Shown: piece after piece, positions 3,545 through 49,686 of the stretch
Position numbering within the stretch: position 1 is the first letter of the stretch
Layout: every line of letters starts with the position of its first letter
Assembly (NCBI GenBank): GCA_973895155.1
Contig: OZ316891.1
Span: forward strand, 1,665,324 to 1,729,323
Length of the DNA stretch: 64,000 nt
Direction: 5' to 3'
From: Marsupella aquatica
Lineage: Eukaryota; Plantae; Marchantiophyta
Made by a program: the position numbers and the translations under genes
The notes under the pieces: generated by a model
Database searches by the model: none
Told to the model about the DNA's origin: nothing
Seen by the model: the letters and a program-made list of their open reading frames with translations, nothing else

Positions 3545-3567
3545 AGAAGAAGAAGAAGAAGAAGAAA
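3545..3567. repeat. (GAA)n microsatellite
   Basis: Direct reading: about 7 GAA units. Confidence 0.9.
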
Positions 3568-12102: not shown

Positions 12103-15100
12103 AAACACAGTGACGGACCAAACAAGAAGTGTGACTACACTTCTCGCGGCGAAAAATTTTTCTAAGGCAAAAAAGTCTTGGATACAGAATTAGTATTCCC
12201 CCTAAAAACTAGTTTTTCAAATTTAAAAAATGGGAAAAATCGACACGAATACGAAGATGGGATACGGCGTATCCCATTTCGGATCCAACCGCAGAATTCC
12301 AAAAAAAATTAAAACAAACGCAGTAAAAGTGCCGATATTGGTTTACCCGACAAGAATATTCCCAAACGATTCTTCTCAACGGTAACATTTAACCGACTGC
12401 GATGCAACTGCAGTCAAATACTAACCACGGTCAGAGAGAAAACTATAAATAGGAGATCACCGCTTGAGAATTTTCCGCTCATTTTTTCTCGCTCTGTATC
12501 CTCTTACTCTCGACGAATGCACACCGTCTATACAAACTTGTATTCCCCAAAAATCAGATTTGACTAACAAGTGAGAATCTTCATGGAAATGGCAAGGATG
12601 AATCCCAAATGGGATATGGCGTATCCTGTTTGGGATTCAACCTTCAAATGTCCAGTTTTTGTTTCACTTTAGCTAAAAAAGAAGGTTGGATGCGAAGTGG
12701 GATACGGGGTATCCCATATCGCATCCAACCTCTGAATATGAAGTATCTTAGACTCCAAATGTCAAAACCTCAACGTTGAATGCGAAATGGGATACGACGT
12801 ATCCCATTTGGGATTCACCTTTCAAATGTCCAGTTTTGATTTTTCTTTAGCTAAAAAAGGAGGTTGGATGCGAAGTGGGATACAGGGTATCCCATGTCAC
12901 ACCCAACCTCCGAATATGAAGCATCTTAGACTCCAAATGTCAAAACCTCAACGTTGAATGCAAAATGGGATACGGCATATCCCGTTTGGGATTCAACCTT
13001 CAAATGTCCAATTTTGGTTTCTCTTTAGCTAAAATAGGAGGTTGGATGCAAAGTGGGATACGGGGTATCCCATGTGGTATCTACCTAGAGTTTCCTTGGA
13101 ATGATGCCCAGAAAAGTCTTATGGATTACTGATTGTTTCGAAGACGCAGTTTGACTAAACACACACTGAAGCTCTTGCTGCCGTTCAATGACAGACACCG
13201 ACTCAAGCTTTAGCTTTCCTGGGAAAACAATATTTTCTCTTGTGAGTCTAATGGCGGTCCAGATACGGCGTATCCCATTTGGGGTTCAATCTTCAAAAAT
13301 CCAGTTTGGGTATCATAAACGTGAAAAAATGAAGTTGGATGCGAAGTGGGATACGGGGTATCCCACTTTGCATTCAACCTCTAAATATGAAGCATTTAGG
13401 TGCGAAATGCAAGATTGACTAAGATATGATCAGATTAAGTTGTGGGGTGAAATTTATAAAATTACAAAAACTTAAGTTTGTACCCTCTCACGCTTTGGAA
13501 GCCATATCTTTATCGGTATTTATCCAAATTCCTTATAATTGATACCGTTAGAAAGAAGAGCTTGAGGATTTTTGGCCGCTTTACTCGGCGCTGCAAAAAT
13601 AGAAAAAGAAAAAATCTGAGGTCAGGAAAAATCTTGCGAAAAAATCAGATTGTATTTGTAAAAAGATCACAAATGATCAAAACTTCAAGAGGAATACCAA
13701 GTGGGATACCAAGTATCCCATGTAGTATTCAAACATGTTATTTCACAAATCTAGAAAGGAAAAAGTCATAAAACCTTGTATGAATACCAAGTGGGATCCA
13801 TGGATCCCACATTTGGTATAAGAACATGTTGTTTTATCCCATTTGGTATAAGAACATGTTATTTTACAAATCAAGAACTTTACAAAGTGTGATAATAATT
13901 TTACAAAGACCAAATGAAATCCAATTTTGTATTCAAATGTGAAAATGGATGAGTAACTTGTGACCGAGGGCCAATCCGGGACTTTGAATCTGAGGTGGGA
14001 TCCACAAACCCACTTGGTATTTGCCTCCATTGTTAGGTAGGTCTGTTGATTGGTCCTACATATTTTGAAAGAGTAAAAAATGGATGTGATTGGGGTTGTG
14101 CTGAGCAAGGAAAAATCCAAAATTGTTTTGGAGTCGAATCAACAAATGGGACTCATGGATCCGTGTCGGTATGGATCCGTGTCGGTATTCAAACCTCAAT
14201 ATTGAGGTGCGAGGTGTGGCAATGGCAAATTTTGGCGGGTGAATACCAAATGGGATCCATGGATCCGTGTTGGTATTCAAACCTCAATATCAAGGTGCGA
14301 GGTGCGGCAAGGGCAAATTTTGGGAGGCGAATACCAAATGGGATCCATGGATCCCATTTGGTATTCATCCTTGGTTTTGAGTGGGTTATTTTTGGACTTG
14401 TTCAGAAAAATGGGATACGTGGATCCCTATTGGCATTCCCTGAGTAGTCCATACAAGGGTTTTTTAAAGTGAGAGTCTGTCTTTTCAAGGAATGCTAAAA
14501 TTTAAATTGTATATTTTTGAGGAAGTCGTCGCGGATCCCAGTTGGTCTTCAAACTAGAATATCAAGGTATGCAATGCGAAAAGTTCAAAATATAGAGGTT
14601 GAATACTAGGTGGGATCCATGCCTCCTGTTTTCCTGATGAGTTTTTGGACTTGCGAAAAAAATGGGATCCATGGATCTCAGTTGGTATTCATGTCGAAAG
14701 ATCTCCTGATGCAAAGTTGCAAGTGGAAAACATCGAGGTTGAATACGATAGTGGATACTTGGATCCCATCTCGTATTCATCATGCGTTATGGGCTAAAAA
14801 AATTCCGGAAATATCGTTGGGTTAACTTAACTAACTGTGTGGGTCGACTGTAGTCCGCGGTCAGTTTTTTGCAGTTTTTGGTTTTACCGCAGTTAAAAAT
14901 TCAAATATTTTTAACCCGAAGTTAAATGGAAGCGTCAAGAGAATGATTTGGTGCGGTTTTCGTCCACGTTCAACGGTTGAATCCGAAATGGGATACGCCA
15001 TATCCCATTTTCAGTTTGCCATTTTGATGGCGAAAATGAAATCTTGTGTTTTACTCGTTTTGTTTGACGCTCGGATTTAGCTTTTAGAAGAATCACGTGA

Positions 15101-15356
15101 AAAGCATTGTTTTTCTAGGTTTTGGAATTTGCACTTTTTTTAGATGAAGTGTATCAGAATTCTGGATTGTGACAATTCTTTGTTTTTGTGTCGACAGTAT
15201 CTCGATTTGAAGTCCGATGTTGGATGCGATTTTGGATTCATCCTCAAAACAGCGTTTTTGATCTTAATTTTAGTGATTTTTCGCCGTTTTTCACGAAATC
15301 GAAAACACACTTCTCGTTTGGTGGTCATACTTCTCGTTTGGTCCGTCACTGTGTTT
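12103..15356. mobile_element. Non-autonomous TIR (foldback-like) DNA transposon, about 3.25 kb, superfamily unassigned
   Basis: TIR aaacacagtgacggaccaaacaagaagtgtgac (12103) is inverted at gtcatacttctcgtttggtccgtcactgtgttt (ends 15356); TA on both flanks; inner inverted match about 12253-12292 vs 14973-15012; interior full of palindromes; no transposase ORF. Confidence 0.8.
12595..13080. repeat. 178-bp tandem repeat (about 2.7 copies), two hairpins per unit
   Basis: ttcaaatgtcca at 12643, 12821, 12999; hairpins tgggatacgacgtatccca and aggttggatgcgaagtgggatac...gtatcccatatcgcatccaacct. Confidence 0.9.
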
Positions 15357-18119
15357 TAAGGCTTTAGGGTTTGACAGGGGCAAAATGGCATGCAGAAAGG
15401 TACAAACGAGATGGAGAGTCGACAGTTAAAACTTACATGAACCCAAGAACCAAGTAAATGTAAATATGGTTGAATGGAAAATCAGTACACTTGTGATCTG
15501 TACATGATCCAAAAAGTTGGCCAAATGTCCCCCTCCCTGCCTGAAACCCTGGGGGGTTACATTCACAAAAGTGACACATCAAGTGGAACTAAATATACTT
15601 AGGCCCATTTAAATGGGTGTGTCAAAAAACTTTCACAATTTTGTGGAAGAACACATACTTAGGGCATGATTTATTGATTGGTCGGCTTTAAAAAACACAT
15701 AAGCCTATTTAATTGTAAAAAAATAATTAAAAAAATAATTTAGGGATTTTTATAGTAGAAAATGACAAGATTTAAAGAAAGAAAGGGTTTTGCAAAAAAG
15801 AAAATTCACTTATTAGTTAAGGGGTCAAACCCTAAACCATTGCACATGATGTATGGCCCTCCATATAGTGACCCCCCCCCCCACCCCCCAAGCTGAAACC
15901 ATGGCTGCACAACAAAAGCTTGAAAGCCAATGTGAACTTACTGCATGAGAAAAGATGAAAAATCTCATGTAATGTGGTTGCAGAGGCACCAAATTAACCC
16001 TAAAATGAAATAGACTTGAAAAACTTCATTATGTATTCATGCATAGACAGGTTTGTACCCTAGTTGGAACCTTGTGCTAGACTGCATTGTTGATAGTTGG
16101 AACAGAGGCCGTGGACAATGGTGCGGAATGCACGGTGGACATCATAATTCTAGGCCTCACAAGAACTGACTTTACAACATCTGAGTAAGCTAGGGTGTAC
16201 ACAGTTTGCAACAAAACTAGGAACAAAACATTCAGGGGGCATTGCACCAAGTTTTCCATCCAGGGGGTCCATCAAGGATATACCTCCACAATCACCCCTG
16301 AATCATTTTTAAGTTGGGCCCAAACTTTAAATAAGCTCGTGTTTTTTTAACCAAGATGGTGACTGTACAGTAATATATTCTCAACATCCCTAGAAGCCAG
16401 AATATAGCACCCTTCCCAAGACAATAGACCCATCCTTCCAGGGCATCCTATTGCACTCAACCCTTGCACAATCATACTGCTGGATTTCTCCACTCCTTTC
16501 AAACTTGTTACCAATCTGACCATCCATAGTATTTGTGGAGAGTCCGTATTACAGAACTAGACTTAAAAAACAAGCCAGGCTTTCCTTTATGAAAAGAAAT
16601 TAAATTAAAAAAAACCTTAGTTTTGATACGTTTCCTTACTACACTACAAATCTTAAAATTAAGTGGCTCTCAAGGATCAACTACAACCAAAGCACCAATC
16701 CAAAAATGGATATTTTCATGCTATTTTGATCATAGTGTTGTTAAATGTAGGAGACTCCAAAATTCACTCACATAAACAAAAATAAACAACATTCCTTGTT
16801 AGATCTTCTGTAATGACAGACTGTAGATGGATAATTTAGAAACTCAAAATATGAAAATAAGGTCAACATATACACTAAATTAACCCCCAAGGAGTTAGTG
16901 GCTCTGAAAAAAAGAGTGAGTGCCTTGGAAAGTATTTGATGTTTAAAATATCGGGTTAAAATATACCAAGTTGTACTATATGAAGCTATGAAAATTGAGC
17001 CTGGATGGAAGGAGGGGTTAGCTTTGCCCATCCCCATTGACTATGACACATGCTGCCTCTCTTTACCCCTAAATCACAGAGTGTGAATGGCTGCTTTTGC
17101 AATGATACTTCACTTTTGAAAAGCACACTCGGAGTAGTTTGTCCAGGCGCTTCGGCCAGGCAATTGACAACGGTTGTTTTGGGGCAGACTTGTGCATTGT
17201 ATGGAAAACTTTTGGATGTCATTAAGCTCAAAATTTTCCAGCATATGTTCTCTGATGTCCAATCAATTACCTGAAAATTTTTATATTCTTATGAGATCAT
17301 TGGCTCCATTGCAAATCAAAAAAAATTCTGAGATCATTTGATCCATTGCCAATGCTTTAAATCCAATTATAAGCCAACTGCCAATCACACACACCCCATG
17401 GGGAATCACTTAGCATAAAATCCCTCAAATACGTGAGAACAAAATAATTAAACCAAACAAACCTAAAAGAAAAATTAAAAACCCTTGTCCTCTTTCTTAT
17501 ATGACTGTGAGAAGTTTTTAAATACCTTGTTGAATATAAAAACTAATATTTTTGCCAAAATTGAATTCCTAGAGGGTTCCTAGATGCCTTTAGCACAACT
17601 TCTCGATTATATTAGTAGCCCAACAAGATAGCATTAACCTGTATTTGTTTGCACCTTGCATGCCCTGAGTACTTCGTGCATGAGTAGCAACTTGGGTAGC
17701 AACTTGCCACCTTGGGGGGAGGACACGTTACTTTTGTGAATGAGTAGTCGGGTGAGTAGTTTGTGCATGAGAAACAACATACCATGTACCCCGCCATGTA
17801 CTTAGTTTGGGGAAGTTAAAACACTTTTCACCTTTTTGAGGGACATCCTGAGTAGTTTGTGTATGTGCAACACCTTACCCCTGTGTAAACTAATGGAAAA
17901 TGAGTGACTTCAAATGGTCAAGAGCCCCTTTACAGGTCCCATTTCAGTCAAGGTTGTAAAGAGTGTTATCCAAGCATTTTTTAATACTGTGAGTGAGTCC
18001 ATCCAAGCTTTGGAAACCTTGGGGGCCTTCGTAACAGACCTCACTGTCCATCCAAGCTTCATATTCATGAAGTTAGTTTGAGGACCCCTTGCGGGTGTGC
18101 AACAAGTTGGAGCAATAAA

Positions 18120-19393: not shown

Positions 19394-19696
19394 CTCAGGG
19401 GTTTCACTCTCACAAAAATGACATATCACGTGCGACAAAGGATAGAGTCATTTTATTGGTTATAAGAGAAGACTTCAAATTTTCTAAGACAAAAAATAGT
19501 GTTTTTTAATCTAATTTTGAGAATTACAAGTCCATTATCATCTTTTTAGTCAAAATTTGGGAATATTCCAAGAATTTTATTACTTTCTAGGGGTCAAAAA
19601 ATTAAAAACTTCTTACACTTTAGGGGATTTGAGGCCTAAAAACATCACACGTGATGGGGAGGCCTCTATAGGCCTCTATATAGTGAGACCCTCAAG
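19394..19696 (+). mobile_element. MITE family 2 (TIR CTCGGGGGTTTCAC), older copy
   Basis: ctcaggggtttcac...gtgagaccctcaag; body aligns with 21319-21614 and 63057-63352; flanks actattgg/gctgtagg could be a decayed 8-bp TSD. Confidence 0.75.
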
Positions 19697-20506
19697 GCTG
19701 TAGGAGCCAATTTGTCATTTGTGCAAGGCAATGGGCTTGTGTTGCTGAGCTTGCCACCCAAAAACATTTCAGGACATTGCCTGCTGAGCTTGACTGTCTT
19801 CAATCAATAATTCTGCCATTTGCACACTCAAGAGGTTGACCTCAACTTCACATTCAAGTCCATTCAAGCCTCTGTTAGTTGCAAAACTCTCATTGATATT
19901 GCAGTTGGATCATGGTACCCTTTTTGGAACCATAATTAGGACATTACTGTGGTGTATGTTACTTAATAGGTGGGAATGCTCTAAGTTTGGAGAACTAAGG
20001 TCCTCACTTATTTTCTTTCCAGGTTTCTTTCAATCCTGGACCACTCAAAAATTGGTAATTGGATTTTTTACTGGGCTTAGTGGAAGACCTGAAAGCATTG
20101 AAAAAGGAAAATTAGGGGATATTTTAATCAATTTTCAGCTTCACAAGCTGACATATATTTAGGGTTTTTATAAACATTTTTTGAGTGTTCCTACAATGTT
20201 CCAAGAAGATAGATGTATTGAAAAGTATTGAAAATTCACTTCCTTTTTTATTTCTAGGATGTGGATTTGTGACATTGTGAATGGTTTCTAGGGTTCCCTC
20301 TTCCTGTCTATGATCCAAAAGGCTTTGAATGGCCCCAAGATTGGCCTCCTCCCGACTGTGGACCAAAATGCTTTGAACAGCCCCCTTCCAAAAGTGCACC
20401 AAAATGCACTGAATGAACCCTTCCCTACCCAAAAACCCCACCCGATAACTGCACATCCAGGTGCACATCAAAATAGGGGAATATTCATCTATTTTGAATA
20501 TGTCAC

Positions 20507-21950
20507 CTCATTGGCCCTAGAGCTCTTGATGGAGAGGATGGTTCTTTTGTTACTCGGCAGGCTGCCCTGCCGCCTTCTGGCGGTGGCATGGGTATTTACT
20601 TGGCCGTTTCCACTGCCCCTTGCGCGTTCCTTGGGAGTTGGGCACAGGTGGCCCCTACCCTTGTTTCTCGTTTCATTGTGGATTTCCAACCCATACTCTT
20701 TGACCATGTCATGGGGATGGAGGGGGGGGGTCCTTCCTTTCCAGGTTTGCCTTTGCCAGACCCGTTCTCTCCTGCCCGAGGTTGTGCAGGCCGTTGTTCC
20801 TAACTCCATGGAGGTGGTTCTAGAAAGTCTGGATCAAGTTCAGCAGGTGATTTTTGATCGCATGCACCGTCACACCCTTTCCAATATGCTCTTGGACCCA
20901 CCTTCCGACTTGGTTTGGGCTCGCCTCCTTTCTTGTGCGGGAACGGGTTCTGGAGCTTGGTTGTTTGCTAGTCCTTTGTGGGCCCCTTTTCGTATGAGCT
21001 CCTTTCTCTTTACCACGTCACTGCAGCTTAGGTTAGGACTTCCTCACCCTTGCCTTCTGGACCAACCCACGTGTGTTGTGGGGCATCGTTGGATTCGTTG
21101 GGAGTTCATATTCTCAGGTGCGGCCATGGGAGCAAGAGGACAGCCACCCATGATGACATTCGAGATGTGGTGGCTGCCATTGCCCGGGACTCTGGTTACC
21201 ATGTTGCCATGGAGCAGCGACATGTTCTTTCCCCTTGGGATGGTCTTCCTGACCGGTGACGGGCGAATCTGGTCTTTTTTAGGGCTGGGGTTCGTGCTCT
21301 TGGGATGTGGTTGTTGCTCTCGGGGGTTTTATTTCCACAAAAATGGCACATCACATGCGACGAAACATAGGGTCATTTTATTGGTTTGAAGGGAAGACTT
21401 AAGAATTGTCTAAGAAGAACAATAGGGTCTTTTAAATCCAATATTGAGACTTATAAGAACATTAGTGTCCTTATAACCAAATTTTTGGAATATTCCAAGA
21501 ATATTCTAACTTTATAGGAGTTGAAAAATAAATTTTTTTCTTACATTTTAGGGGGTCCGAGGCCTAAGAATGTCACAGGTGATGAGGAGGCATCCATATA
21601 GTGAAACCCCCGAGTTGTTGCTGATCCTATCGATGAGAGCCATGTCGTGGTTTTCGCCCATGTGCCTGGCAATGTTGCGGCCAAGGCAGCCCAGCTCAAG
21701 GAGGAGGCCTATGCTGTTCTCTACCCAAAGGATCTTTTCTACCCCTTTGCCCTTGAGGTCTTTGGTGTTCTCCACCCTACCTTCGCCCAGTTCCTGCGGG
21801 CTTGTGCAATTTTTTGTATTGAGAGGAGATCTTTCCCCCATGTTTATGTCATCAACGCCTTTTTTTGGCAACGGGTGTCTGTGGCTCATCAGTAGGCTCA
21901 TACATTCACCCTCCTTCATAGGGCAAAGGCAATTGGGTTTAGGGCCTCCC
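20507..21950 (+). mobile_element. 5'-truncated CRE-like non-LTR retrotransposon (post-RT region, zinc knuckle, restriction-like endonuclease), degenerate
   Basis: QAALPPSGGGMG motif; CGASLDSLGVHILRC zinc knuckle followed by THDDIRD; RADL...WDVVVA|DP; AAQLKEEAY; FYPFALEVFG; QRVSVA. These are the RLE-type non-LTR C-terminal motifs. Stops and frameshifts present. Confidence 0.8.
21319..21614 (+). mobile_element. MITE family 2 with perfect 8-bp TSD, inserted in the CRE-like endonuclease domain
   Basis: ttgttgct|ctcgggggtttt...gtgaaacccccgag|ttgttgct (TSD 21311-21318 and 21615-21622). Confidence 0.9.
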
Positions 21951-23389
21951 AGCAGGTGTGACCCTCTCTACCAGGCTTTTCAGTTCTCCACTCAGTAGGG
22001 TGTTTGTCTTCATGGCTCCTTTGTTGGTTACTTTTTGGTTCTTTGCTCCTTTGTTAGCTGTTGGTTGGGGACCCCCTCGCTTGTTTTTCTTGGGGCCCTT
22101 TCCCCTCTTTTCCTCCCCTTCATTGGGTTGTTTTGCCTTTGGAATCATGGCTCCAGGTTGAGCCTTTTTTGCCCTTGGGCAGTGTGAGATATACTTGTGA
22201 AGTAAAATGAGACTAGGTGTGAACGGACTTGTTCGATAAGTTCCCAAAGAGGAGCCCAACATAATGCTTCCAAATGAGGAAAGTACAATCTGGTCCTGTG
22301 GAATCCCAATGGCGGCTATGTAGTATGTATATGGATAGTGACCAAAGCCAACGAAAAAGTTAGTCATGGTTACCCAATACAATGCAACACTTTCTACAGT
22401 TGAATTGTCTGTACGTAAAAATCCTTCATATGCATCATATCAAGGTCATCAACTCATCTGGAAGCTACCTTCGGAAGCAAACCTCATAAACGTTTCACGT
22501 GCAGTAGATCGGGCAGCCTTTCTCACATCCCTGTCAAACATACTGTCCAGATAGATCAGCAGCCACCCACAAAGTGAAACACAATCCATAGAGAGAGGAA
22601 GCTGCAACCACCAACCAATCGCTTTAGAGGACCATTTCCATGCATGCAATGAGAACTCAGCCACAGCTCCCTTTTGAATTGTTTTTTGTATGGACGTGAA
22701 CTGGTCATCGGCTTGCGTGTTAAAGTAGCCTTTTCAAATAATCGGCAAAGCTTAAAGCAGATCAGAGCGGGTTTATTGGGCATCCATGAGCTTCCTTTAA
22801 TGGCCACTAGGACGCCAGCCTAGGGACTTATCACCTTTTCCTATCGATGTGGACCAATGGTGTTGAAACACCCGGAGTGCCATGCAATGATATGAGGTGA
22901 TTAAGGTGGAGCTCTCTCAAAGCGAGTTATTGCAGTCGTCGCATTGGCGGATTGGGTCAAGGGATGACGTTGCAGGTAGAACTCCAAAATATCGGCTCCT
23001 CAGTCTATCCTTTCCAGCTTCCAATCATGATGATCATCATGATGGCCACGAAGTCCTACTGTCCCAATTTCTTGCTGCCCTAAATGACTGTAGTCATGCT
23101 TTTCCAAGGAAAGAAAAGTGAGGCGCCTTTATGGGACATCAAATTTTTAAATAGCAATTTGGTCGATATGGAGGGTAAGAAACTACCGTACTTGAGTTAA
23201 CTGTCATCATCGCTTCAGGCAGTTCACTCTAAAATTAGAAAAGCGCCATCGTAATTATTCTTTCTGAGTCACTTTTGGAATCACTTTTGAACCGTACCAT
23301 TTAAAACCCAGTTTGGACTTGCCCGGCAAATAGGCCGTTTTAAGGCCGTCAACCGGCAAGCCGACACCCGGTCTCTCCCGGTCGGCATC

Positions 23390-23760
23390 ATCCGGTCCCG
23401 GCCCGAGTAAATCCGGTCCCGGCCTGAGTACTCCCGGTCCTCTTCCCTCCCGGCCCCGGACCCCGGATCCTTCATCCTCCCGACCCCGGACCCTAAACCT
23501 CCCCCGGCCCGGACCCTAAAGCCCCCCCCCCCCCTCTCCCGGCCCGGACCCTAAAGCCCCCCCCTCCCGGCCCGGACCCTAAAGCCCCCCCCCCCCCTCC
23601 CGGCCCGGACCCTAAAGCCCCCCCCCCCCCTCCCGGCCCGGACCCTAAAGCCCCCCCTCCCGGCCCGGACCGTAAAGCCGCTCCCCCGCCCCCCCGCCCC
23701 AGTCCCTAAAGCCCCGCCCCGGTCCCTAAAGCCCCCCCCGGCCCGGCCCACCCCCGCCCG
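23390..23760. repeat. Left GC-rich subterminal array of the hAT (cccggcccggaccctaaagcccc units)
   Basis: About 8 CCCTAAA-containing units read directly. Confidence 0.9.
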
Positions 23761-23896
23761 ACCCGGTCGCTCATGGCCGGGCCGGGGGGGACTTTAGGGT
23801 TAGGTCACGCGAGAGGAGGGCAGCCGCCGGGGGGGATCGGGCTCGGCCACCTGGGGTCGGCTCGCGAGGTGGGGGGGGGCAGACCGGGACCGGGCC

Positions 23897-23902
23897 TATA
23901 AA
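23897..23902 (+). promoter_or_regulatory. Candidate TATA box for the cargo transcript
   Basis: cctataaag just inside the GC-rich end, followed by a CT-rich leader, a GTAAGT donor at 23980 and AG acceptors at 24584 and 26529 just upstream of the cargo ATGs. Confidence 0.5.
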
Positions 23903-24109
23903 GTGAGGAGGTCTCCTCACTTTCTCTCATTAGTCACTTCTCATTACTAAGTTTGCTTGTTTTGTAGGAGAGACCTTTGGTAAGTTTTTCTTGCTTTTGC
24001 TTATGTTTTGCTTTGTTTTGAGTTTAGTTCATTCGTTTTTGAATTGTTTTCGGTCTTTTTTTTGGCTATGCTTTGTCATGTATGACTTTAACATTTAGTT
24101 TTAATTTGG

Positions 24110-24540
24110 AGGGATATTAGTGTTCTCACGTATGCGCATGCTTGGAGCTTATGCTTGGCATGTGGTATTTCGTATGAGAGAACCTAATATCGCCTTAACA
24201 GTTTAGTGTGATTTGTGAATTGAGTGGAGTATTTTTTAGGATAGAGATTTTCATGTACGCATGCTTGGAGTTTCCGCTCGGCATGTGGTATTTTGCATGG
24301 ATATCTCGATTCCTTGTAAATATTCTCACAACATTTACAAATGACATCTAAACTATAGGTTTCACATAGATTGGAATAGGAATGTAACAACTTGATGAAA
24401 AAGACATCTTTTGTGCGCATGCTTGGAGTTTCGGCTTGGCATGTGGTATTTCATATAGTTGTCTTTCCCCTCATCGTTGTTACTTTCAAAGTACTAAACA
24501 AACGAATAAAAAATTGAACAAATATTAAAATTTCATTGCT
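24110..24540. repeat. Left copy of internal diverged inverted repeat (partner 31495-31890)
   Basis: gcgcatgcttggag...ggcatgtggtattt motif three times (about 24130, 24255, 24413); inverted motif aatatcacatgtc...ctccaaacatgcg three times (about 31571, 31731, 31854). Confidence 0.75.
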
Positions 24541-24697
24541 TGGGTATTATTGATACCAGCACAAAGTGTGAAATGATATTTCAGGATTCTTGATCCAGCT
24601 TTATTGTACTTGCATCATCCATACCCTCGGCAAGCAGCCAACACACTCCGTAAGCGCCTTTTCTTTGTCCTACAACTTGTTGTGGTTACTTGAGAAC

Positions 24698-26356
24698 ATG
24701 GCCGCTGCAAATGTGAGTGTAGAGTATATGAAACTTTTTGAGGCAATGAAGACCATGCTAAACGAGGGATACCAACCAGATCCTCATGCTCTCAATGCTC
24801 TAAGGAATGCTCACAAAACCTTAGAAATTTGTAAACATGGTAAAACCTTAGGGAAACGGAAACATAGAGGAGGAGCAATTGGTGCTGCATTGAAAGAGAG
24901 AAGGCAACATGTGTTAGTTGTGATTTGGAAAAAGATTCTATATCCCTACACTTTGCCAGCACAGTATGAGCAGGATGGCTTTGAGAGGAAATATGCTATG
25001 CATGGAGCAGAGGGTTACAAAAACCTTTTAAATGACATGGGACGTTGCATGTGTGAGACTGTGGAGAAAGAAGAGGACATGACCCGAGATGAAATTGCTT
25101 CCTTAATAAGTGATTTTGAGAAGCCGGGTGGATTTGTTGAACATTTGGCGTTGAATTTTGCGGTGAATCTTTGGGACAAGTTGGAATCCAATTTGGATGA
25201 GGCTGGGGCCGTCATGCTTGGAGTTCCTGGGCTATACACACATAGAAAAGATTTTCTAGCTAAATGGAGCAAAGAGTTAGCAATGGCCAAATCGGAGAAT
25301 AATGTCAAATATGCGAGCAAGGTCGTGCAGTTTGGAGAGATTGGCGTGGAGGTTGTAGATAGAGGAACGCGTCCATCACGAGTTGTTCCCATGGTCAGGA
25401 GTATTCATTTCTTGAGGAGGGAGCAAGTATCGAATTTGCATCGCATTGGAAGCGGCATCCAAGGACATGTGTTCATATGTCATATATTGGATTGCCCATT
25501 GATTCCTCGAAATGCAACACTGGTTGCAAAACGATTTAAGGATGGAGACCGGCACAAGAGACGAACAGATGCTTTACAAGAAGTGCTCATGGGAGGTTTG
25601 AATCACAAAGGAATAATTGGGGCCTTGGCAATGACTATCGAAGATCCACCGAAACTTATCTATGACCATTACAATGGAGGTGACTTGGGAAGTTTCATAG
25701 ATAAGTGTGGGAAATGGAGTAAGAGCAAAGGGAAGACACAATCCACTTTTGAGGTTGATGTGACATTCATATCCGAAAAGAAACTCTTTTTGGAACATCG
25801 TTTGGGGATTGCTATGGCTCTATTGGAGATCTTGCAATATTTGCATGCACATGACCGTTTCTATTGTGATCTTCATTTTGGGAACATCCTTCTTCACTTT
25901 GATCACGAGGATGATTTGGCAATTAGAGTTTATGTAGGAATATGTGATTTTGGGTTGTCCAAACACAAGTCACAATGCACATTACCACAAAATCGAATGT
26001 GGCCCACCCCTACAGAGAAAGCAGTTGCGTATCAAAAACAATATCCACAATTGGCGCCTGAGCTAGTTCATTCCGATCCAGAAGAGTACAGTCAAGCAAC
26101 TGACGTATATGCTTTGGGCAATGTCTTTGAGACATTACTCACAGAAAATTGGGATGGAATGACCCCAATGACACGATATTTGAATAGGGGTTGGAATGCT
26201 AGAGAGCATGGCCCTAAATTGGATATTATGATACGTGACATGATGGCCATTGATGTCAAGAAAAGAATGGATTGTGTTCATTGGAGTTTGAGAATGATGA
26301 GGACATTCCAAGATTGTAGATTAGTTCAGCACAATAGTCCTTATCTAAGAGATTAG
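24698..26356 (+). CDS. Protein kinase (TKL-like fold) with unknown N-terminal domain, hAT cargo
   Basis: Uninterrupted ORF (552 aa from ATG 24698): GSGIQGHV glycine loop, VAKRF lysine, alphaC glutamate (LQEVL), YCDLHFGN catalytic loop, DFG, APE, DVYALG. Confidence 0.9.
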   Translation: MAAANVSVEYMKLFEAMKTMLNEGYQPDPHALNALRNAHKTLEICKHGKTLGKRKHRGGAIGAALKERRQHVLVVIWKKILYPYTLPAQYEQDGFERKYAMHGAEGYKNLLNDMGRCMCETVEKEEDMTRDEIASLISDFEKPGGFVEHLALNFAVNLWDKLESNLDEAGAVMLGVPGLYTHRKDFLAKWSKELAMAKSENNVKYASKVVQFGEIGVEVVDRGTRPSRVVPMVRSIHFLRREQVSNLHRIGSGIQGHVFICHILDCPLIPRNATLVAKRFKDGDRHKRRTDALQEVLMGGLNHKGIIGALAMTIEDPPKLIYDHYNGGDLGSFIDKCGKWSKSKGKTQSTFEVDVTFISEKKLFLEHRLGIAMALLEILQYLHAHDRFYCDLHFGNILLHFDHEDDLAIRVYVGICDFGLSKHKSQCTLPQNRMWPTPTEKAVAYQKQYPQLAPELVHSDPEEYSQATDVYALGNVFETLLTENWDGMTPMTRYLNRGWNAREHGPKLDIMIRDMMAIDVKKRMDCVHWSLRMMRTFQDCRLVQHNSPYLRD

Positions 26357-26540
26357 GGATTTCATAGTTTCATCGTGAATGATAATGATAGATGTCATGA
26401 ACTATTGTCTATTTAATCATGTCATATGAATTAAATGTATTACTCATTTTGCTTCATTGTATTTTGTTATCAATTTTATCTTGAAGGGTGTATGGTGAAT
26501 GAATGCTAAAAATGTTTTTGTTATTGTAGAATCTGCAAGG

Positions 26541-28466
26541 ATGGGAAAATGGGATTTGGAATCCGACGAGGAGGAAAAACCTAAAAAGATTCCATATTTA
26601 TATTTGCAACCTGCTCAGGATTTACACCTTTGGTCTCAGGATCAATACGCTGAAGAAGATTCTCAACCCATAGACGAGGACATTGGAATGAGTAGCAATC
26701 ATGCAGGGCAAAGCATAACCAAAATGGATGAGGACACCAAGGATGTTGAATGGAATATCACAATGCCAAATGTGAAACCTCCTCACAATGAATGGCCCAT
26801 CAACGCCAAAGAATTGGAGATATTGATGCCACTTGTGGAGTTCCAAAAATGGATGAAAATCATTTTTGATGATGAAAATTTATGGGCCACAAGGTCTTGG
26901 ATGCAAGAGAAGTACACAATGTCCAAGGTAACACATGTGGAAATTGGCAAGCATTGGTAACAAAGATTTCAAGAGTATGCTCCAAAGAAAGCGCAAGGCA
27001 AAACAAGCTCGGTTTATCCTCCTTTTCTTCGACTCCTAATTGCTGAATTTGTTCTCAAGTGGAAGGTGGATTACCGTTGGGAAACAGAAGAGGGCAAGAT
27101 GACTCACTCTGTGCATCAGTCTGTCCTGGACATTGCAGGTTTGAAGAACAACAAAAATACTACAAAAGATATGTCGAGTCAAGCAACCAACAAAGGGTCA
27201 AAAAGAAAGATACATGATGTGCAAGACATTCATGCACATCAGAAAGATAAGCCGACTGCACTGGAACGACTCTTCACTAATTCTAAAAGTTTCAGCGCAC
27301 CAAAACATGTTGACAAAACATCAAACATTGCAGCATCTACAAGTAACAATTTACCAAGAAAGTTCACTGGTGTTTTGGATCCAAAGAAAGAATCATTGAA
27401 CATGGAGATTGTGTGCAAGAGTTTGGGCACAGAGATTGGTCATTTGATCGAGAACAATCTCCGCACAAAGTTTGGTCTTGACCTTTGTGAAGCTGGCAGC
27501 ATTGACTACTACAAGTCAAAGTTGCAAGATAATCTTTTGAAGATGAAAGCAATGGAAAAAATGCCCATTCAAAGTGCAACTACTTCGGAGGTGAAGGAAT
27601 ACAAGGTGCAACTGTACGACAAGATGGAGGAGATCGCAAAGCTCAACAAACAACTTGCCCAAAAGGATGGTCAATGTAGTCAAATGAAACAAGTTCAAGA
27701 GGCAGATAGAGTCATTCAGGATTTGAAGAATCAGGTTGCATCACAAGAGGTGATCATAAACAATCTGCAAGAGGAGATCGAGCAAATGAACACTGCTGAG
27801 GTGGATGGTCAGTCAGACAAGGAAAAATCAAGATGCAAGAACTACAATTATATGAACTTGCAAATGATTGATCCTACGGGAGAATCTCATCTTTTTCCGG
27901 ATGTGGAGGAGGATCCAGAAGATGTAGAGAAATTTTTTGACAAGTGGAAGACCGATGAAAGTATGGCCCAATTTGTTCGAGAAAAGGATGGAAGATGTAC
28001 TTGGTGCTTGTATCCATGGGGTCCTGAATCTGTTTCCATTTTGGGAACATGCGGTCACTTATGGCATCATGCTTGCTTATTTCGGTGGATGAAGAAGAGC
28101 CAAAAATATTGGTGTCGGAAACCATTTCATAAACGAGAGTATGAGCAACGAGGTTTGTTGAAACAAATGCCACCAATGGAGACACAGCAAGACACTGAAG
28201 ACATGACTCAAGAGAGTATTGCAATGGCACAGATCGATTCAAGGCCCATTGACAACTTCACAGTTAATGAATACAACTTGTCAGATGGTGACTTTGACAA
28301 TTTGTTATTCAGTGGTAGATTCCAACAGTGGAAGGAATATGCCATGGCCAATCGACCAACAACAGATGAGAAAAACATGCAGCGATCTATTCGTCGCCAT
28401 CGTCGTTGTCAGCAACTGGCAGAGGTGAAAGTAGAAGTGCAAGACAATGAGAACCGAAATGAGTAG
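26541..28466 (+). pseudogene. Coiled-coil plus RING-H2 protein (putative E3 ligase), one in-frame stop, hAT cargo
   Basis: ORFs 26499..26960 and 27066..28466 are in one frame separated by a single TAA (26958-26960); coiled-coil region; CTWC-x14-CGHLWHHAC-x9-YWC RING-H2 pattern with the seventh ligand Tyr (TAT, plausibly from TGT). Confidence 0.8.
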
Positions 28467-28578
28467 ATTGCACACTCAATGTTTAGTATAGCATATTTTA
28501 TTGCATAGGACATGCACAATCCGGCATAGTATATCATAGTTTGTCGTATAGTACTAGCATGTAATACCTAAACAGATG

Positions 28579-31437
28579 TCAAGGTTGTGACGAAAAGTGC
28601 CTTGTGTTATTGTTCTCATTTTCTTGCAACTGTCGATCAAATTGAAATTGTCTTGTTATCCATTGGACCGGATCTGCGCTATGATATTCTTGAAATGCCC
28701 CAACACGGGCATGTATGCTTGATGTGTATGGATTTGTCATGTTCTGCCTTTCATACATATTTTGTGCTGGAGAAGCATGTTGTCCCCACTGTGCATCATC
28801 AGGTTGCGCAAACAAAGTTGGTGTTGTTCTCTCAGGACAGAGCTCCGATGCAGCACCTCGTCGTTGAAATAGGTACAAAGTACTTGCTTGGACATCATTT
28901 TGTACATTCAATGTTGGGTATGTGAAGGATGGGGTTAGTTGGGAAGACACTACAAAGTTTGCATCAAATGAGTAGTCCTCGTCATCCTGAATTTGAGACT
29001 CATCGATTGTAGGGAACATCATTAAATCCATTTCATCTTCCCATTCTCCGACATCACTTATTTCAGTATCTGGTGGAATACGAGTCAACATGTGACTATC
29101 ATTGTGTAATGATAATCCTTGCAAAGCCTCATCTGCGTCATCAATTGTATCAAAATCCTCCACATCATCCTCTCCAAGAGCCGCACATGTAACACCATGT
29201 TGTTCAGTGTGACATCCTTCTATGGAAGTAGGCCTCGGGCCATCATTTGTTGCTGTTCTTTCTTCATATCATCTATACATAGACGTATGAGGGTTTCTCA
29301 CCTTCGTGAGCCCTTTTTGCACCCTCGAATTTGTGAATACAAAAACCAAATCTTTTGCCCGATCATTGGTCAACCTATTACGGCTTTTTGAATGGATAAA
29401 GCCGTATGAACTCCAATTTCGTTTGCATGAAGATGCACACATTTGTTGATGTGTGATTCTTCTCGCCATCAATCTTAGGTCCGCGTAATCAGCTCCATAC
29501 AAATGCCACCACTCTCCTGGACTTAATTTCCCAATATTCGATTGTGCTCCTCTAATTGCAACCGATGAATTTGGCAATTTTTTTTGAGCCTCGAATGCCT
29601 GCATTTGGATGTCAGAAATAAGTGTCGTCACATCTCGATCATGGTTGATTCCTGCCTTCATCTTGTGTTCTGCATATCTACGAACGTAATCATTGAAGCC
29701 TCTATACAGTTCTGCATCTCCTGCCACATCTTCATCTTCATCGAAGAAAAATTGAGGATTCAGATATGCTGCTGCTAACATGAAATCAGTAGTAAGTGAT
29801 TTTCGTCGATCCATATACACTTTCATTATCTTTGGTTTTAAGTAATCTGTTACTAATGTACAACCCTCCATGCTCGCCTCCAGTTTAGCTATTCTTTTTT
29901 TCAAGCTCCAATATAGCCAAGGAGACTGTGGTGAAACTCCATCGAATTCTCGCAACATCTTCACCAACGGCAGGAAAAAAGCAACTATAGATTTTACTTG
30001 AGCCCAAAATGTATCTTGCTGTATCCACGATTTAAGTTCGTCTGCCTTTCCCCTCGTCATATGCCCCTGTGACTTTGGTCGAACTGGCAGGCGATCACGA
30101 TAGGATTGCCACTTGTCATCAATGACCATTTATTGTAAAGCTCCTCTTAGCTCCAATGCTCTCTGCGCCATTAAAAAATTTGCTGCAAATCTCGTTGCAT
30201 TTGGATTTAACAACTTCCTGTCCCCAGATTTCCTCACAAATATTGCAGACAACTTTTATGATGATGTAACTGCTTTAACTATCCATCTCAAGTGCTTAAA
30301 AATCATTTTGAATGGATTTTTTTTCCGCTCATCTAGCACTACATTCTTGTGGCCACACATGTCTTCTAGCAACAAATTAAAAACGTGAGCAGCACACCAA
30401 CTCCATGTCACATGCGGATATTTTTTCATAACTATCTCTTCACCTGCTACACGATTTGCAGGCGCCCCATCAATAACAATTTGTATGATGTGATCGGCAC
30501 CAATATCATCTATGTATTTTAACCACATGTCACCAAGATACTTCCCATCTTTCTTGTCGGCTTGTGCAGCGTTCCAACTATCCAAAAAGAAATCTCCTTT
30601 TGAACTCAACAACATGACATTCATCAAAGGTTCCCTTCGGATATTTTCCCATCCATCGGATGAAAGGGAATATCCAAAAGGTTTTGCCTCCTTCATTGTT
30701 TTTGTCATGTCCTTTGTAAGATCAACTCTAGCCTCCTCCAATAATTTTATTCTCAAATTTCGCATACCCGGAAGAGAATATCCATTTACAATCCCTTTCG
30801 AGGTTTCTGTGACTACTTCACGGAAGAAAGGATTCTCCGACACATTGAATGGAATACCACTTGAATAAAAAGCTTTGGCCCACAGCTTATCCAAATGAGC
30901 TCTATTTGGAATTTGATAAGCATCCATGATTGGGTTTGAAAAATTTGATGCTCTACTTCGATGACTCATATTTCCATCCTCATCGAGGTCAACAAAATTT
31001 GAGTCTCGAGTTGATGCTTGCGAATTGGAAGATGGGTTATATGACCTACGACCTCTCATGGATAACAGAACATGACTTCCATCACTTCGTTTGTACTTTA
31101 TGGATGGGTCAACCTTTATGACATTGTACATTCTATTGATGTCATCTAAGTCAACAACTCCATACAAGCCTGTGCAAGGTGGCGCATCTCCTTTGTGTAT
31201 GTTTCCCATCAAATGTGCTTTTGCTCGTGTTGCATGATGCATTGTATATTTCTTGCAAAATTTGCATCTTTGATATATACGATTAATATCATTACACGCT
31301 GATGGCGTATCACATCGTTCAAAATATTTCCACACTGGGGAAAATTTTGCACTACAATCTTGATTGTGATTTCCACCGTGCCTAACAAGAGTAGAATGAG
31401 CTGATGAGTTGCCCGACTCATCTTCTTTGGAAGACAT
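28579..31437 (-). pseudogene. hAT transposase (BED finger, DUF659-type core, dimerisation domain, acidic tail), three in-frame stops
   Basis: PVWKYF...CKFC...H...HL BED finger; SSDGW; VIDGA; CAAH; NATRFA; ASSCKRNWS...HSKSRNRL. ORFs 30256..31464, 29269..30129 and 28579..29163 are all in one frame, broken by TAA, TAA and TGA; the usual catalytic E of CERNWS reads K. Confidence 0.93.
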
Positions 31438-31494
31438 GATCGAAAACAAGAACTTTACACACAAAGTATCTTCTTATACGTCGCTAAACATAGT

Positions 31495-31890
31495 CACTTA
31501 ATAAAAATTGAATGATTATTTGTTAGTCTTTTGAAGTAACAACAATAAAACGAGAAAAAAAAACTACTGTGAAATATCACATGTCGAGTCAAACTCCAAA
31601 CATGCGCACACGGTTCTCTTTTGTTTTCTGGTTGTTAACATTCCTATCCGACGTATGTGATATCTATAATTTAATGAGCATTTGCCGACATTGTGAAAAC
31701 ATATGAGACAATTAGTGATAATCATGTAAAATATCACATGTCAAGCTTTAGCTCCAAACATGCGTACATGAATGTCAACATTGTCAAAATTTGTTTCACA
31801 ATACCCACAAGTACCACTAAATGTTAAGGGATAAGAAAAAAGTTATTATGCGGATTACCACATGCCGAGTAAAACCTCCAAGCACGCGCG
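31495..31890. repeat. Right copy of internal diverged inverted repeat (partner 24110-24540)
   Basis: See partner; lies directly upstream of the transposase ATG. Confidence 0.75.
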
Positions 31891-32096
31891 CACAAAAGTC
31901 TTTTCTATCTCTTTACATAGAGTGCTCTACTTTTAGTGAAGTGTGTCTAATGAGAAAAACTCAAAGTTTTATACAATTTAGAATGGAAAAACATTCTATA
32001 TTTAGCGGGGTTGAAATACTAGATAGGCGAGAAATCGTCACAACCCCAAATTAGCAGATATGGCTTATCTCAATTGAGTTTATCCATAACTCTAAA

Positions 32097-32900
32097 ACCC
32101 GGGCTTATCTTCCCTTAACCCAGGCCGGGCCTCCCTCCTCCCTCCTCTCACCCCTCCCTTCACCCGGGCCGGGCCTCCCTCCTCCCCCCCACCCGGGCCT
32201 CCCTCCACCCTGGCCGGGCCTCCTTCCCCCCCCACCCGGGCCTGCTCCCCCCGGGCCTCCCTCCACCCGGGCCGGCCCTCCTCCCTTCCCCCACCCGGGC
32301 CTCGTCCTCCTCCCCACCCGGCCTCCTCCCCCCCCCTCCCCGGGCCCCCCTCCACCCGGGCCAGGCCTCCTCCCTCCCCCCACCCGGGCCTCCTCCTCCT
32401 CCACCCGGGCCTCGTCCTCCTCCTCCCCACCCGGGCCTCCTCCCCACCCGGGCCTCCTTCCCCCCGGGCCGGCCCTCCTCCCTCCCCCCACCCGGGCCTC
32501 GTCCTCCTCCCGACCCGGTCTCCTCCCCCCCCCACCCGGGCCCCCTCACCCCTCCACCCGGGCCGGGCCTCCTCCCTTCCCCCACCCGGGCCTCCTCACC
32601 CCCCCCCACCCGGGCCGGGCCTCCTCCCTTCCCCCACCCGGGCCTCCTCACCCCCCCACCCGGGCCCCCCTCCACCCGGGCTGGGCCTCCTCCCTCCCCC
32701 CACCCGGGCCTCCTCCCCCCCCCACCCGGGCCCCCCTCCACCCGGGCCGGGCCTCCTCCCTCCCCCCACCCGGGCCTCCTCCCCCCCCCACCCGGGCCGG
32801 GCCTCCTCCCTCCCCCCACCCGGGCCTCCTCCCCCCCCCACCCGGGCCGGGCCTCCTCCCTCCCCCCACCCAGGCCTTCCTCCACCCGGGCCGGGCCGGG
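32097..32900. repeat. Right GC-rich subterminal array of the hAT (ccacccgggcctcctccccc units)
   Basis: Dozens of cccgggcc-centred units; explains the spurious Gly/Arg/Pro-rich ORFs. Confidence 0.92.
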
Positions 32901-33980
32901 ATTTAAAGCCGGGGCGTAAAGCCGGGGCCGGGTGACGAGAGGTAGGGGGGGCCGGGCCGGGTCCGGGAAGAGGCCGGGAGGAGTTCAGGCCGGGCCGGGA
33001 GAAGTTCGAGTCGAGCCGGGGAATAAAGACAAATATGCGTCAAATGAGAGCATTTCAGGCCGGCAAATGCCGAGTTTACGTGCCGGGCAACTCGGCAAGT
33101 TGCCCGTCACATCAAACCGGGATTTAAAAAGATCTGTGTCCTTATATTGCGCTCACTTTATCGATATTGACGAAGACAGTATATCTTTCCCACGCCCAGT
33201 GCCAAGTTATTAGTAAAGTTACCGTCTGGGTCCCGTGTCCTCCTCTTCTGACGATTCGCGGTTGTCCAAGCATTGACTTGCTACAACTCATGGGAGACCT
33301 AGAATGTAATGAGACAAAAATGGAGGGTGCTCCTGGTTCCTTTAATTTCTGAGACACATCTCTGCGGTCAAATGATCCTTATCAACGCAGCGGCCTTTCA
33401 AGACTGTTTGGGCACAACATGTGCGATCTGGCACCTCTATAAGGGCTTCTGAATCCTCAGGCTTTGGTAATTTAAATTTCCGGACTGTTTGCTATAACAG
33501 GCTGGTAGTGTACTACTGTACTGATGAGGAAAGGACAAAATACAATGCAATAAAAGGAAAGAAAAGAAAAAGAAGTCCTGACATGACGAACTACCATGGG
33601 GCAAGCCTCTGCTAGAGATCTATGATGGACCTTTCAGGTTTGAGCACCCTTTAGCATTACCAAAATCCATTAACTGAAGTGCATAGTGAAAACAAATGGT
33701 GATGATCTTGAGGAAATAGCCTATCCCCAAACATCGGAGCTGCCATCCACGGAGCCATCAACTTAAAGACGGAGTCTCCCAAGGTCAATAGTATGGGGAG
33801 AAAGCTATTTTATGAGATGTGTTACATATTTCTCCTCTCTTCCCATTGTGATGTTACTATGCCCCTGATGCCCTGACACAAATGGTTAGCTACCAAACAT
33901 CAGTCTACATACACGTGTCATCTCATACCTTTGTAACATCATTACATAGTCTTGATAGCAGATGACAAGGCCAATTTAGC

Positions 33981-46811: not shown

Positions 46812-47264
46812 TGCCAATTGACTTGAAGTACATTTGTTAAACTTTCATTGCTCCTGTTTTGCTCTATCTACTGTATTTCCTGTCCTACTCATTTGTGCCT
46901 CTAGTCAATACTGTTTTTGTTTGGCTTGGAAATCACTGCCCTGATTATTGTACAATTATACACTTCTGCACGACGTGTAGTTGTAGCGTGCGAGCAGCAA
47001 GTAAAAACTTCATGATACAGGGCCTCGCAACCTCATAGGAGGAAAAAACCCTAAACATAAACCATTTCACTAGCAAACTTAATTCCTAGCTACCCAGAAC
47101 CTTATTTTGAACTATCTTGAGTTTTGTGTCATTTTTTTGTACAGCCCAATTAGCGGGCCAATTAGGGACAACTTTTTGGCTGGCCAAATCAATAGCCAGA
47201 GGAAAGTGAATCCCGGATGGATTGCCATGTTGGACAAAGTTGCTCCCGTGGATCACATTTTGGC

Positions 47265-47439
47265 TGTCGTGATATATAGTATTGAAGCCATAGTGTATCG
47301 AAAACATACAGTCACCGGCAAGGCATATGTGCAAGCTGCTAGCAACCAACATGCATAGAAAAAGTCCAATCACATTCACAAGTGCCAAAAAAAAGCAAAT
47401 GAAGTGGTATGTACGTAGTGGAGGTGTAAACCTCTGTAT
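47265..47439 (-). repeat. Terminal repeat a2 (175 bp)
   Basis: Matches 47801-47975 with about 4 substitutions by eye. Confidence 0.95.
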
Positions 47440-47798
47440 AATAAAAGGCATAAGAGAAACAAGCGTACTGAAATCGAATCAAAAACCGGCGGGATGCCAA
47501 GATTGGCCGGAGGCATCTAACGAATCACTGTGTGAATCTCGTGTACGGAACCGACGAGCACTGTCTGAGCTCTGTCAACAGCGATTCAAGAAGAACTAAA
47601 AACCAACAAAGAAAGACATGCCCTAAGCAAGCAAAGTCCTGGCGTCACACTAACAAGCACATTTGCTTCAAGAACGGCCTAGACTTGCTACAAGAACATG
47701 TCGCTAACTCAGGTAGTACACTAGCCCTAACTACATACCTAGCGGGCATGAGAGGGACATGCCGATGTGCATAAGAGGCACTGTCCCTCGGCATGACA
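47440..47798 (-). repeat. Repeat b2 (359 bp)
   Basis: Matches 56863-57221 with about 14 substitutions by eye, mostly transitions. Confidence 0.95.
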
Positions 47799-47800
47799 AC

Positions 47801-47975
47801 TGTCGTGACATATAGTATCGAAGCCATAGTGTATCAAAAACATACAGTCACCGGCAAGGCATATGTGCAAGCTGCTAGCAACCAACATGCATAGAAAAAG
47901 TCCAATCACATTCACAAGTGCCAAGAAAAAGCAAATGAAGTGGTATGTACGTAGTGGAGGTGTAAACCTCTGTAT
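47801..47975 (-). repeat. Internal repeat a1 (175 bp), preceded on the element strand by a G7 tract
   Basis: Copy of 47265-47439; ccccccc at 47976-47982 is a PPT-like run on the minus strand. Confidence 0.95.
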
Positions 47976-48014
47976 CCCCCCCAGACCACAGCCAAAAGGA
48001 GGGCTGAAGAAAAT

Positions 48015-49614: not shown

Positions 49615-49686
49615 AGTGTCAGCATTCTAATGTGTCACACCAGGCCTATGAATTACCTCAAAATCATACTCCTGGAGTATGAGCGC

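Follow-up and report, generated by a model that had tools for sequence, protein, structure and literature searches.

The sequence analysed here, referred to below as the window, is a stretch of 64,000 nucleotides (64 kb) from the liverwort Marsupella aquatica (contig OZ316891.1, positions 1,665,324 to 1,729,323). Between positions 23307 and 33121 it holds a hAT transposon of 9.8 kb with three genes, namely a transposase gene and, on the opposite strand, genes for a protein kinase and for a protein with a coiled coil and a RING-H2-like finger, the latter called open reading frame 2 (ORF2) in the following (Table 1). The sequence-only reading of the window had proposed such a unit bounded by a target-site duplication (TSD), and this was borne out by the flanking ATTTAAAA repeats, the terminal inverted repeats (TIRs) and the ends of other copies. 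It had also described the genes as convergent, with stop codons about 110 bp apart; we measured 112 bp between the stops of ORF2 and the transposase. The unit satisfies the usual description of the hAT superfamily, with DDE-type transposase domains, an 8-bp TSD (in this copy) and short TIRs.

The duplicated target site ATTTAAAA is 8 bp long and occurs six times in the whole 64-kb window. The TIRs, CCCAGTTTG and CCCGGTTTG, are 9 bp long and identical at eight of nine positions. Most hAT ends start with CA or TA; these start with CCC. Because a palindromic TTTAAA in the flank could mislead the calling of the ends, they were checked against other copies, using contigs from public sequencing runs (X1-X5) aligned to the window. 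On the left, an X5 contig (record 15) carries 33 foreign letters before its alignment begins. On the right, 6, 8, 10 and 11 contigs from runs X1-X4 diverge after 33121, with an agreement to the flank of 0.41-0.52, and contig depth drops just beyond this position from thousands to 6-330. A longer TIR including the TTTAAA flank was rejected, as the match of other copies stops at 23307 and 33121.

Table 1 Coordinates of the features of the hAT element in the window
Feature	Position	Strand	Remark
Left TSD ATTTAAAA	23299-23306		direct repeat flanking the unit
Left TIR CCCAGTTTG	23307-23315	+	alignment of another copy begins exactly at 23307
Left GC-rich subterminal repeat array, CCGGCCCGGACCCTAAAG units	23480-23753	+	repeat families D2, D9
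TATA-like box, predicted promoter of the kinase/RING unit	23897-23902	+	putative assignment
Predicted splice donor GTAAGT, first leader intron	23980-23985	+	putative assignment
Bulged hairpin K1	24135-24164	+	conserved, upstream of kinase
Bulged hairpin K2	24258-24287	+	conserved, upstream of kinase
Bulged hairpin K3	24416-24445	+	conserved, upstream of kinase
Predicted splice donor GTAAGC, 48 nt 5' of kinase ATG	24650-24655	+	identical hexamer and spacing in L001
Non-RD protein kinase (of TKL/TK-like type; TKL, tyrosine kinase-like; TK, tyrosine kinase), 552 aa, N-terminal helical domain, open frame	24698-26356	+	Pkinase E 2e-14
Kinase motifs (residue)			GxGxxG 251, VAK 276, E294, YCDLHFGN 389, DFG 417, APE 453
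Predicted splice acceptor TGTAG, 11 nt 5' of ORF2 ATG	26525-26529	+	equal spacing in L002
ORF2, 641 codons: folded N-terminal domain, coiled coil, RING-H2-like finger	26541-28466	+	start as in homologues
RING-H2-like finger, C-x2-C-x14-C-x-H-x2-H-x2-C-x10-[C in family, Y here]-x-C	27996-28115	+	
hAT transposase, 952 codons, one frame, long acidic C-terminal tail	28579-31437	-	DUF659 and hAT dimerisation domain
Bulged hairpin T3	31578-31606	-	conserved, upstream of transposase
Bulged hairpin T2	31735-31764	-	conserved, upstream of transposase
Bulged hairpin T1	31859-31888	-	conserved, upstream of transposase
Right GC-rich subterminal repeat array, CCACCCGGGCC units	32098-32917	+	repeat families D1, D3, D5
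Right TIR CCCGGTTTG, read on minus strand	33113-33121	-	other copies end at 33121
Right TSD ATTTAAAA	33122-33129		direct repeat flanking the unit

The minus-strand transposase of the earlier reading stands, as DUF659 (E 3e-28) and Dimer_Tnp_hAT (E 7e-9) were both found above their cut-offs. Its motifs include SDGW at residue 260, IDGA at 322, CAAH at 348 and SSCKRNW at 669; at the position of the last glutamate the window copy has K and the homologues have E. About 230 residues with conserved acidic, serine/threonine (S/T)-rich motifs follow the dimerisation domain. The frame is interrupted by in-frame stops at codons 394, 436 and 723 of 952. Codon 436 is a sense codon in other copies, and the frame is open in homologues of 905 and 934 aa. 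A search among proteins of 689-2000 aa returned two long homologues with 59-62% identity. That this copy is broken had escaped the earlier reading: the transposase has three stops, the RING gene has one, and a RING cysteine is lost. The window copy is thus decayed, and the element itself is real.

The kinase frame is open and keeps the Gly loop, the VAIK lysine, the helix-C Glu, the catalytic Asp and Asn, DFG and APE. The claim of a kinase with all core motifs therefore holds for the motifs and the frame, and needs correction for the catalytic loop, which is of the non-RD type: it reads YCDLHFGN instead of HRDLKxxN, with HCD or HAD in the family and His in place of the catalytic-loop Lys. The Tyr of this loop is private to the window copy, with T>C at 25862 in 2829 of 2829 depth in X1. 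The closest solved structures are Roco4 and the receptor tyrosine kinases DDR1 and Trk. AlphaFold models of the kinase and ORF2 were poor, with predicted local distance difference test (pLDDT) values of 55 and 51.

Eight kinase homologues with 44-71% identity were recovered, the full-length members being 540-636 aa long, and homologues at about 45-50% identity retain full-length open frames and the catalytic residues. A metagenome scan yielded three loci (L001, L002 and L003) out of 235 candidates, and L003 was dropped as a relative since it is an unrelated bacterial kinase. The ratio of nonsynonymous to synonymous substitution rates (dN/dS) of the kinase was 0.17 between the window and L002 (421 codons) and 0.165 between L001 and L002 (415 codons); the pair of window and L001 is saturated, with proportions of synonymous and nonsynonymous differences (pS and pN) of 0.80 and 0.34. 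Judged by these ratios, the kinase is under purifying selection. No match for the kinase was found in prokaryote genomes, and viral contigs gave no match for the kinase alignment, the ORF2 alignment, a transposase homologue or the hairpin pattern described below.

In a FastTree phylogeny whose rows were picked by size from wider kinase matches, the element kinases form one clade (9 of 69 rows, Shimodaira-Hasegawa (SH)-like support 100), far from the RD kinases. Several further groups of non-RD kinases, whose loops read HND or HCD, stand next to this clade. Distant non-RD kinase groups with HNDL or HCDL loops (P0063-P0159) have N-terminal extensions and lengths of 440-680 aa; of eight whose origin was checked, seven lie on short contigs and the other belongs to Riccia sorocarpa. 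These distant kinases may be cargo of other bryophyte transposons.

ORF2 begins 184 nt after the kinase stop. In the window copy it is interrupted by an in-frame TAA at 26958-26960 (codon 140). A shorter version, a 455-aa protein starting at 27099, was rejected, as the homologues read through the stop position. Six homologues show 38-63% identity, with full-length members of 624-643 aa. Residues 74-208 form a well-predicted N-terminal domain (pLDDT mostly 60-88) that gave no Pfam match and no usable Atlas match; fold searches with ORF2, in which this domain was searched within the whole ORF2 model, returned coiled coils or nothing. All five homologues covering the finger have its eight ligands. 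The seventh ligand is Cys in all five covering that site and Tyr in the window copy, which keeps seven of the eight, and the last pair is CxC where the canonical C3H2C3 finger has CxxC. The finger matches zf-RING_2 with E 3e-5, Pfam RING scores lie under the curated cut-offs, and the best PDB matches are HRD1, RNF165 and Arkadia (E 6e-4 to 0.02). Of the coiled-coil/RING-H2 protein proposed earlier, a coiled coil and a RING-H2-like finger are present, in a frame that is broken here and with a finger of seven ligands and a final CxC.

Two further features had been overlooked in the earlier reading, a conserved hairpin and a set of splice signals. Self-comparison of the window revealed an inverted similarity of 71% between a 380-nt region in the kinase leader and the leader region of the transposase. 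Each leader contains three copies of a two-part hairpin motif, each in sense to its own gene. Because the same hairpin triplet stands in both leaders, the kinase and transposase units appear to share a history and a control element. The two-part pattern matched nowhere else in the window, nor in any of 10 simulated windows. Two full hairpins and a partial one also lie upstream of the kinase in L001, which is 46% identical to that of the window. On the sense strand, each of the eight full copies gives the same kind of structure, in which an 8-bp stem is followed by a UG bulge, a second stem of 3-4 bp and a short loop, with folding energies of -12.7 to -19.7 kcal/mol versus -3.8 to -11.5 on the antisense strand. 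Across the eight copies, 95 of 96 cells are paired and 4 of 12 pairs have changed on both sides; the covariation score was equalled by one of 500 shuffles, in a test uncorrected for descent. One U-G pair is invariant, which is easier to reconcile with an RNA structure than with a palindromic DNA site. Run over 81.6 kb, a hairpin model recovered the eight training copies and one weak match, with no other strong one. Rfam held nothing on the hairpin; two weak mir-4433 matches fell in the GC-rich end, far under the gathering score.

The kinase leader also contains predicted processing signals. No ATG lies between the GTAAGC donor and the kinase ATG, in the window and L001 alike. The intervening 48 nt are too short for a plant intron ending before the kinase ATG, so that splicing from the donor at 24650 should eliminate the start of the kinase. 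In L002, TGTAG again precedes the next ATG downstream of the kinase by 11 nt. The simplest reading of these signals would be a single pre-mRNA with the kinase gene as an optional intron of 1880 nt. The description of the ORFs as intron-free hence applies to the coding sequences, with conserved splice signals in the leader.

The public-run contigs speak to the number of copies. Summed contig depth in bins inside the element was 550-5,731 in X1 and 513-31,923 in X2, values that are not a copy number, versus 0-22 and 58-141, respectively, in three unique flank bins, and this contrast holds equally across kinase, ORF2 and transposase. A second copy in X5, about 96% alike and with another left flank, is covered by contigs 23307-26668, 26668-28044, 28044-28777 and 28777-29090, which span the stretch from the TIR through the kinase to the start of ORF2 (3273 bases) as well as the ORF2/transposase junction. 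The element is a member of a multi-copy family. Among 40 listed differences from public-run copies, 29 are coding, of which 4 of 10 are synonymous in the kinase, 1 of 4 in ORF2 and 7 of 15 in the transposase; these are few and pre-selected.

Nearly all homologues sit on short metagenome or Logan contigs, as expected for repeats. Among named organisms, the nearest matches come from Calypogeia fissa, with a protein 49% identical to ORF2, and from Riccia sorocarpa, with a distant kinase, which fits a bryophyte host. Kinase and ORF2 proteins were found on contigs of equal size twice, at 7429 (P0017, P0030) and 5391 (P0005, P0011). We infer that these are the same contigs and that kinase and ORF2 occur together in at least two other lineages; no member of the transposase cluster matched the sizes of these contigs.

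The last 62 bp of the element (33060-33121) are deeper than the interior, reaching 16,900 in X1 and 80,400 in X2 versus 680-910 at 33000. Many contigs agree over the final ~60 bases and then differ inward. Abundant non-autonomous relatives are likely to exist in the family, and the contigs sharing 33060-33121 are likely families resembling miniature inverted-repeat transposable elements (MITEs) mobilised by the hAT transposase. One X4 contig (record 32) agrees with the right flank beginning at 33122 (33122-33200) and not with the element end; it may represent an empty site.

L001, a single metagenome contig, shows the hairpins and kinase in another setting. There, hairpins, donor and kinase are followed by a DUF6729 gene (E 2e-11; Atlas DUF6729 neighbours at 0.95, Mutator and ISL3 transposase leads at 0.80), and no ORF2 was seen on the contig. 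This gene (L001:2527-5521) lies directly 3' of the kinase homologue, has a likely intron near 3476-3617 and contains DDE-like acidic motifs, which we take to be similar to those of Mutator-like elements (MULEs) or KDZ. The term DUF6729 was absent from the papers found in one literature search for a kinase-plus-RING hAT architecture. Provided that the L001 contig represents a single element, the module would pass between superfamilies, and any one particular transposase would be an unlikely target.

Together, these data suggest, with a probability of roughly 0.6, that the conserved kinase and RING genes are dedicated helper genes acting on host proteins. Dedicated accessory genes, rather than a one-off captured fragment, had been proposed from the sequence before, and the multi-copy family, the homologues of the cargo and the kinase dN/dS of 0.17 support this. 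In the mechanism that we envisage, a plus-strand promoter near 23897 would yield a single pre-mRNA. Joining of donor 24650 to acceptor 26529 would splice out the kinase gene and give the mRNA of the RING protein, and the donor left unused would give the kinase mRNA; a minus-strand promoter would yield the transposase mRNA. One RNA-binding factor could co-regulate both units through the three hairpins per leader. Kinase and RING protein would then phosphorylate and ubiquitinate host proteins, letting the element be expressed and move.

Several observations weigh against this reading. No data point to a particular target, and the sub-cut-off RING scores together with the CxC end make ubiquitin ligase (E3) activity of ORF2 uncertain. 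The dN/dS values come from two fragments, and the L002 frame has two stops; they concern the kinase and not ORF2, and reflect long-term selection that could partly predate capture. The window copy is the only complete TSD-bounded copy read, the pairing of kinase and ORF2 by equal contig size is indirect, and L001, as a single contig, may be chimeric or reflect a nested insertion. As for the RNA elements, the hairpin structure was drawn from the same eight related sequences, individual copies have modest z-scores (-0.7 to -2.6), and the 33 post-kinase residues of L002 resemble ORF2 weakly (E 0.072).

The helper genes might instead act on the element itself, tuning or destroying the transposase, or with ORF2 binding the hairpins, and thereby limit transposition and spare the host. 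The ~230-residue acidic S/T-rich tail of the transposase, the hairpins in both leaders and the well-predicted ORF2 domain without a family match are all compatible with such control, and accessory proteins of the Oxytricha TBE transposons have been proposed to act during transposition. However, the hairpin-kinase module also precedes the unrelated DUF6729 gene of L001, with no RING gene between, and L001 keeps its hairpins though no ORF2 was seen there. We therefore prefer a host target and regard control of the element by its own genes as unlikely. Still less probable, in our view, is that the block of hairpins and kinase, with or without the RING gene, is a separate selfish module or nested element of little use to the hAT that carries it. 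In the window and in L001 the block accompanies transposases of two unrelated types, many similarly built distant non-RD kinases lie on similar short contigs, and passive transfer of cargo between superfamilies has been described for TET/JBP. Yet repeat and self-comparisons of the window showed no inner TIR, TSD or long terminal repeat (LTR) pair around the block, the transposase leader has the same hairpin triplet in a region 71% alike over 380 nt, and selection on cargo in a mobile element requires a benefit to the carrier.

A Pack-type capture, in which host kinase and RING genes are passively amplified and decay neutrally, would account for the broken ORF2 and transposase of the window copy and for the damaged or truncated appearance of the L002 kinase and the Calypogeia protein; capture of a whole host gene by a hAT is also known (PMC6710886). 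This is nevertheless very improbable, as the cargo genes are full-length and the kinase does not evolve neutrally. A search of 5.8 billion proteins and 1.84 billion cluster representatives, which did not include the host genome, turned up no host gene near-identical to the cargo, and the best matches reached 71% for the kinase and 63% for ORF2. The cargo is not confined to this copy, since it lies in a multi-copy family and has conserved homologues, several of them full-length, and kinase dN/dS was about 0.17 (0.17 and 0.165) where neutral decay had been the alternative. The transposase decays like the cargo, which is ordinary ageing after insertion.

DNA transposons with accessory genes are already known, and for the combination of kinase and RING in a plant hAT our literature searches found no precedent. 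They returned no kinase-plus-RING hAT, no such hairpin and no kinase in an optional transposon intron, with Repbase, most subscription journals and supplements outside the search. Published exceptions to the rule that hATs normally carry nothing but a transposase gene include hAT7 with TET/JBP (PMC12730594) and a hAT with histone H3 (PMC6710886), and among DNA transposons with three genes, TBE (bioRxiv 10.1101/2025.03.17.643836) and IS3EU (PMC12730594) include a kinase. DUF659 marks hAT transposases found mostly in green plants (PMC3985635). The window element resembles these DUF659-type plant hATs (PF04937 and PF05699; PMC3985635) in its transposase domains, short TIRs, 8-bp TSD, GC-rich subterminal arrays and probable non-autonomous relatives with the same ends, and differs from them in its size of 9.8 kb, its two extra genes on the opposite strand, its leader hairpin triplets and its ends starting with CCC.

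The TBE elements of Oxytricha, which belong to Tc1/mariner, encode a 42-kDa transposase, a 22-kDa ORF and a 57-kDa zinc-finger/kinase protein under purifying selection (bioRxiv 10.1101/2025.03.17.643836). They are likewise three-gene DNA transposons with an accessory kinase under purifying selection. Their description sets them apart: they belong to another superfamily and kingdom, the zinc finger is fused to the kinase, no RING is reported in the available text, and they serve programmed genome rearrangement. Among fungal elements, hAT7 carries TET/JBP, IS3EU has an alpha-kinase opposite the transposase, and cargo crosses superfamilies (PMC12730594). The window element shares with hAT7 an accessory enzyme in a hAT, with IS3EU a kinase opposite the transposase, and possibly with both the crossing of cargo between superfamilies, whereas the fungal cargo is a dioxygenase or an alpha-kinase, in place of a TKL-like kinase and a RING protein, and the TSD of hAT7 is 7 bp. 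The hAT of Pseudocercospora fijiensis amplified histone H3 (PMC6710886) and also carries a whole gene; in that fungus the cargo corresponds to a host gene and every copy has been inactivated, while in the window element it is conserved among distant homologues.

Among plant DNA transposons, dedicated counter-defence genes are known chiefly from the VANDAL/VANC system. VANDAL elements are a type of MULE, and their anti-silencing proteins, VANC, bind to non-coding parts of the elements (PMC10398659). Accessory genes and repeated non-coding motifs in a plant DNA transposon are common to both systems (PMC10398659). In the window element, unlike VANDAL, the motif appears to be a hairpin formed in RNA, with a cargo predicted to be enzymatic; no VANC-like domain was found in Pfam scans of the window proteins and their homologues. 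This suggests a different counter-defence strategy, in which host proteins would be altered by phosphorylation and ubiquitination under a shared RNA hairpin and a predicted splice switch.

More tentatively, and with greater doubt than for helper genes acting on host proteins, bryophyte transposons might share a portable cassette of promoter, triple hairpin and intron-nested non-RD kinase that is swapped between superfamilies; in this hAT family, splicing would switch between the kinase and a RING E3 that jointly rewire host silencing or cell-cycle proteins. If so, the distant bryophyte non-RD kinases would be a large overlooked family of transposon effectors. Intact homologues (P0015, P0028, P0182/P0183) make the role of a transposon-borne kinase, unresolved for TBE, testable in Marchantia or Physcomitrium. 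Caution is also warranted with bryophyte annotations, where lineage-specific kinase and RING 'gene families' may be transposon cargo.

Other repeats surround the element. A Ty3/Gypsy-type LTR retrotransposon occupies 47440-57221 on the minus strand, with terminal repeats (47440-47798 and 56863-57221) that are 96% alike. Between protease and reverse transcriptase it encodes a C5 DNA-methyltransferase-like domain (ELFGG, GWECQGFS and ENT motifs; PF00145 E 4.5e-5, at the cut-off), and 3' of the integrase a PHD finger (PF00628 E 4e-12). Retrotransposons bearing a DNA methyltransferase (DNMT) are described from Klebsormidium and Symbiodinium, with no mention of PHD in the available text (PMC5890265), and a literature search found no report of one in bryophytes. 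A 176-nt direct repeat, 98% alike (47264-47439 and 47800-47975), flanks the left LTR and makes the true left boundary ambiguous. To the left of the hAT insertion, 19503-21614 belongs, with 63056-63352, to a three-copy dispersed repeat (D16, D17, D20), and a 359-aa ORF at 20310 without a Pfam match looks spurious. Finally, 10352-16287 contains nested inverted-repeat pairs (10352/16247, 10538/16025 and 12101/15321) around a palindromic GGGATAC..GTATCCC array with a period of ~88-90 bp, and is probably a foldback or MULE-like non-autonomous element.

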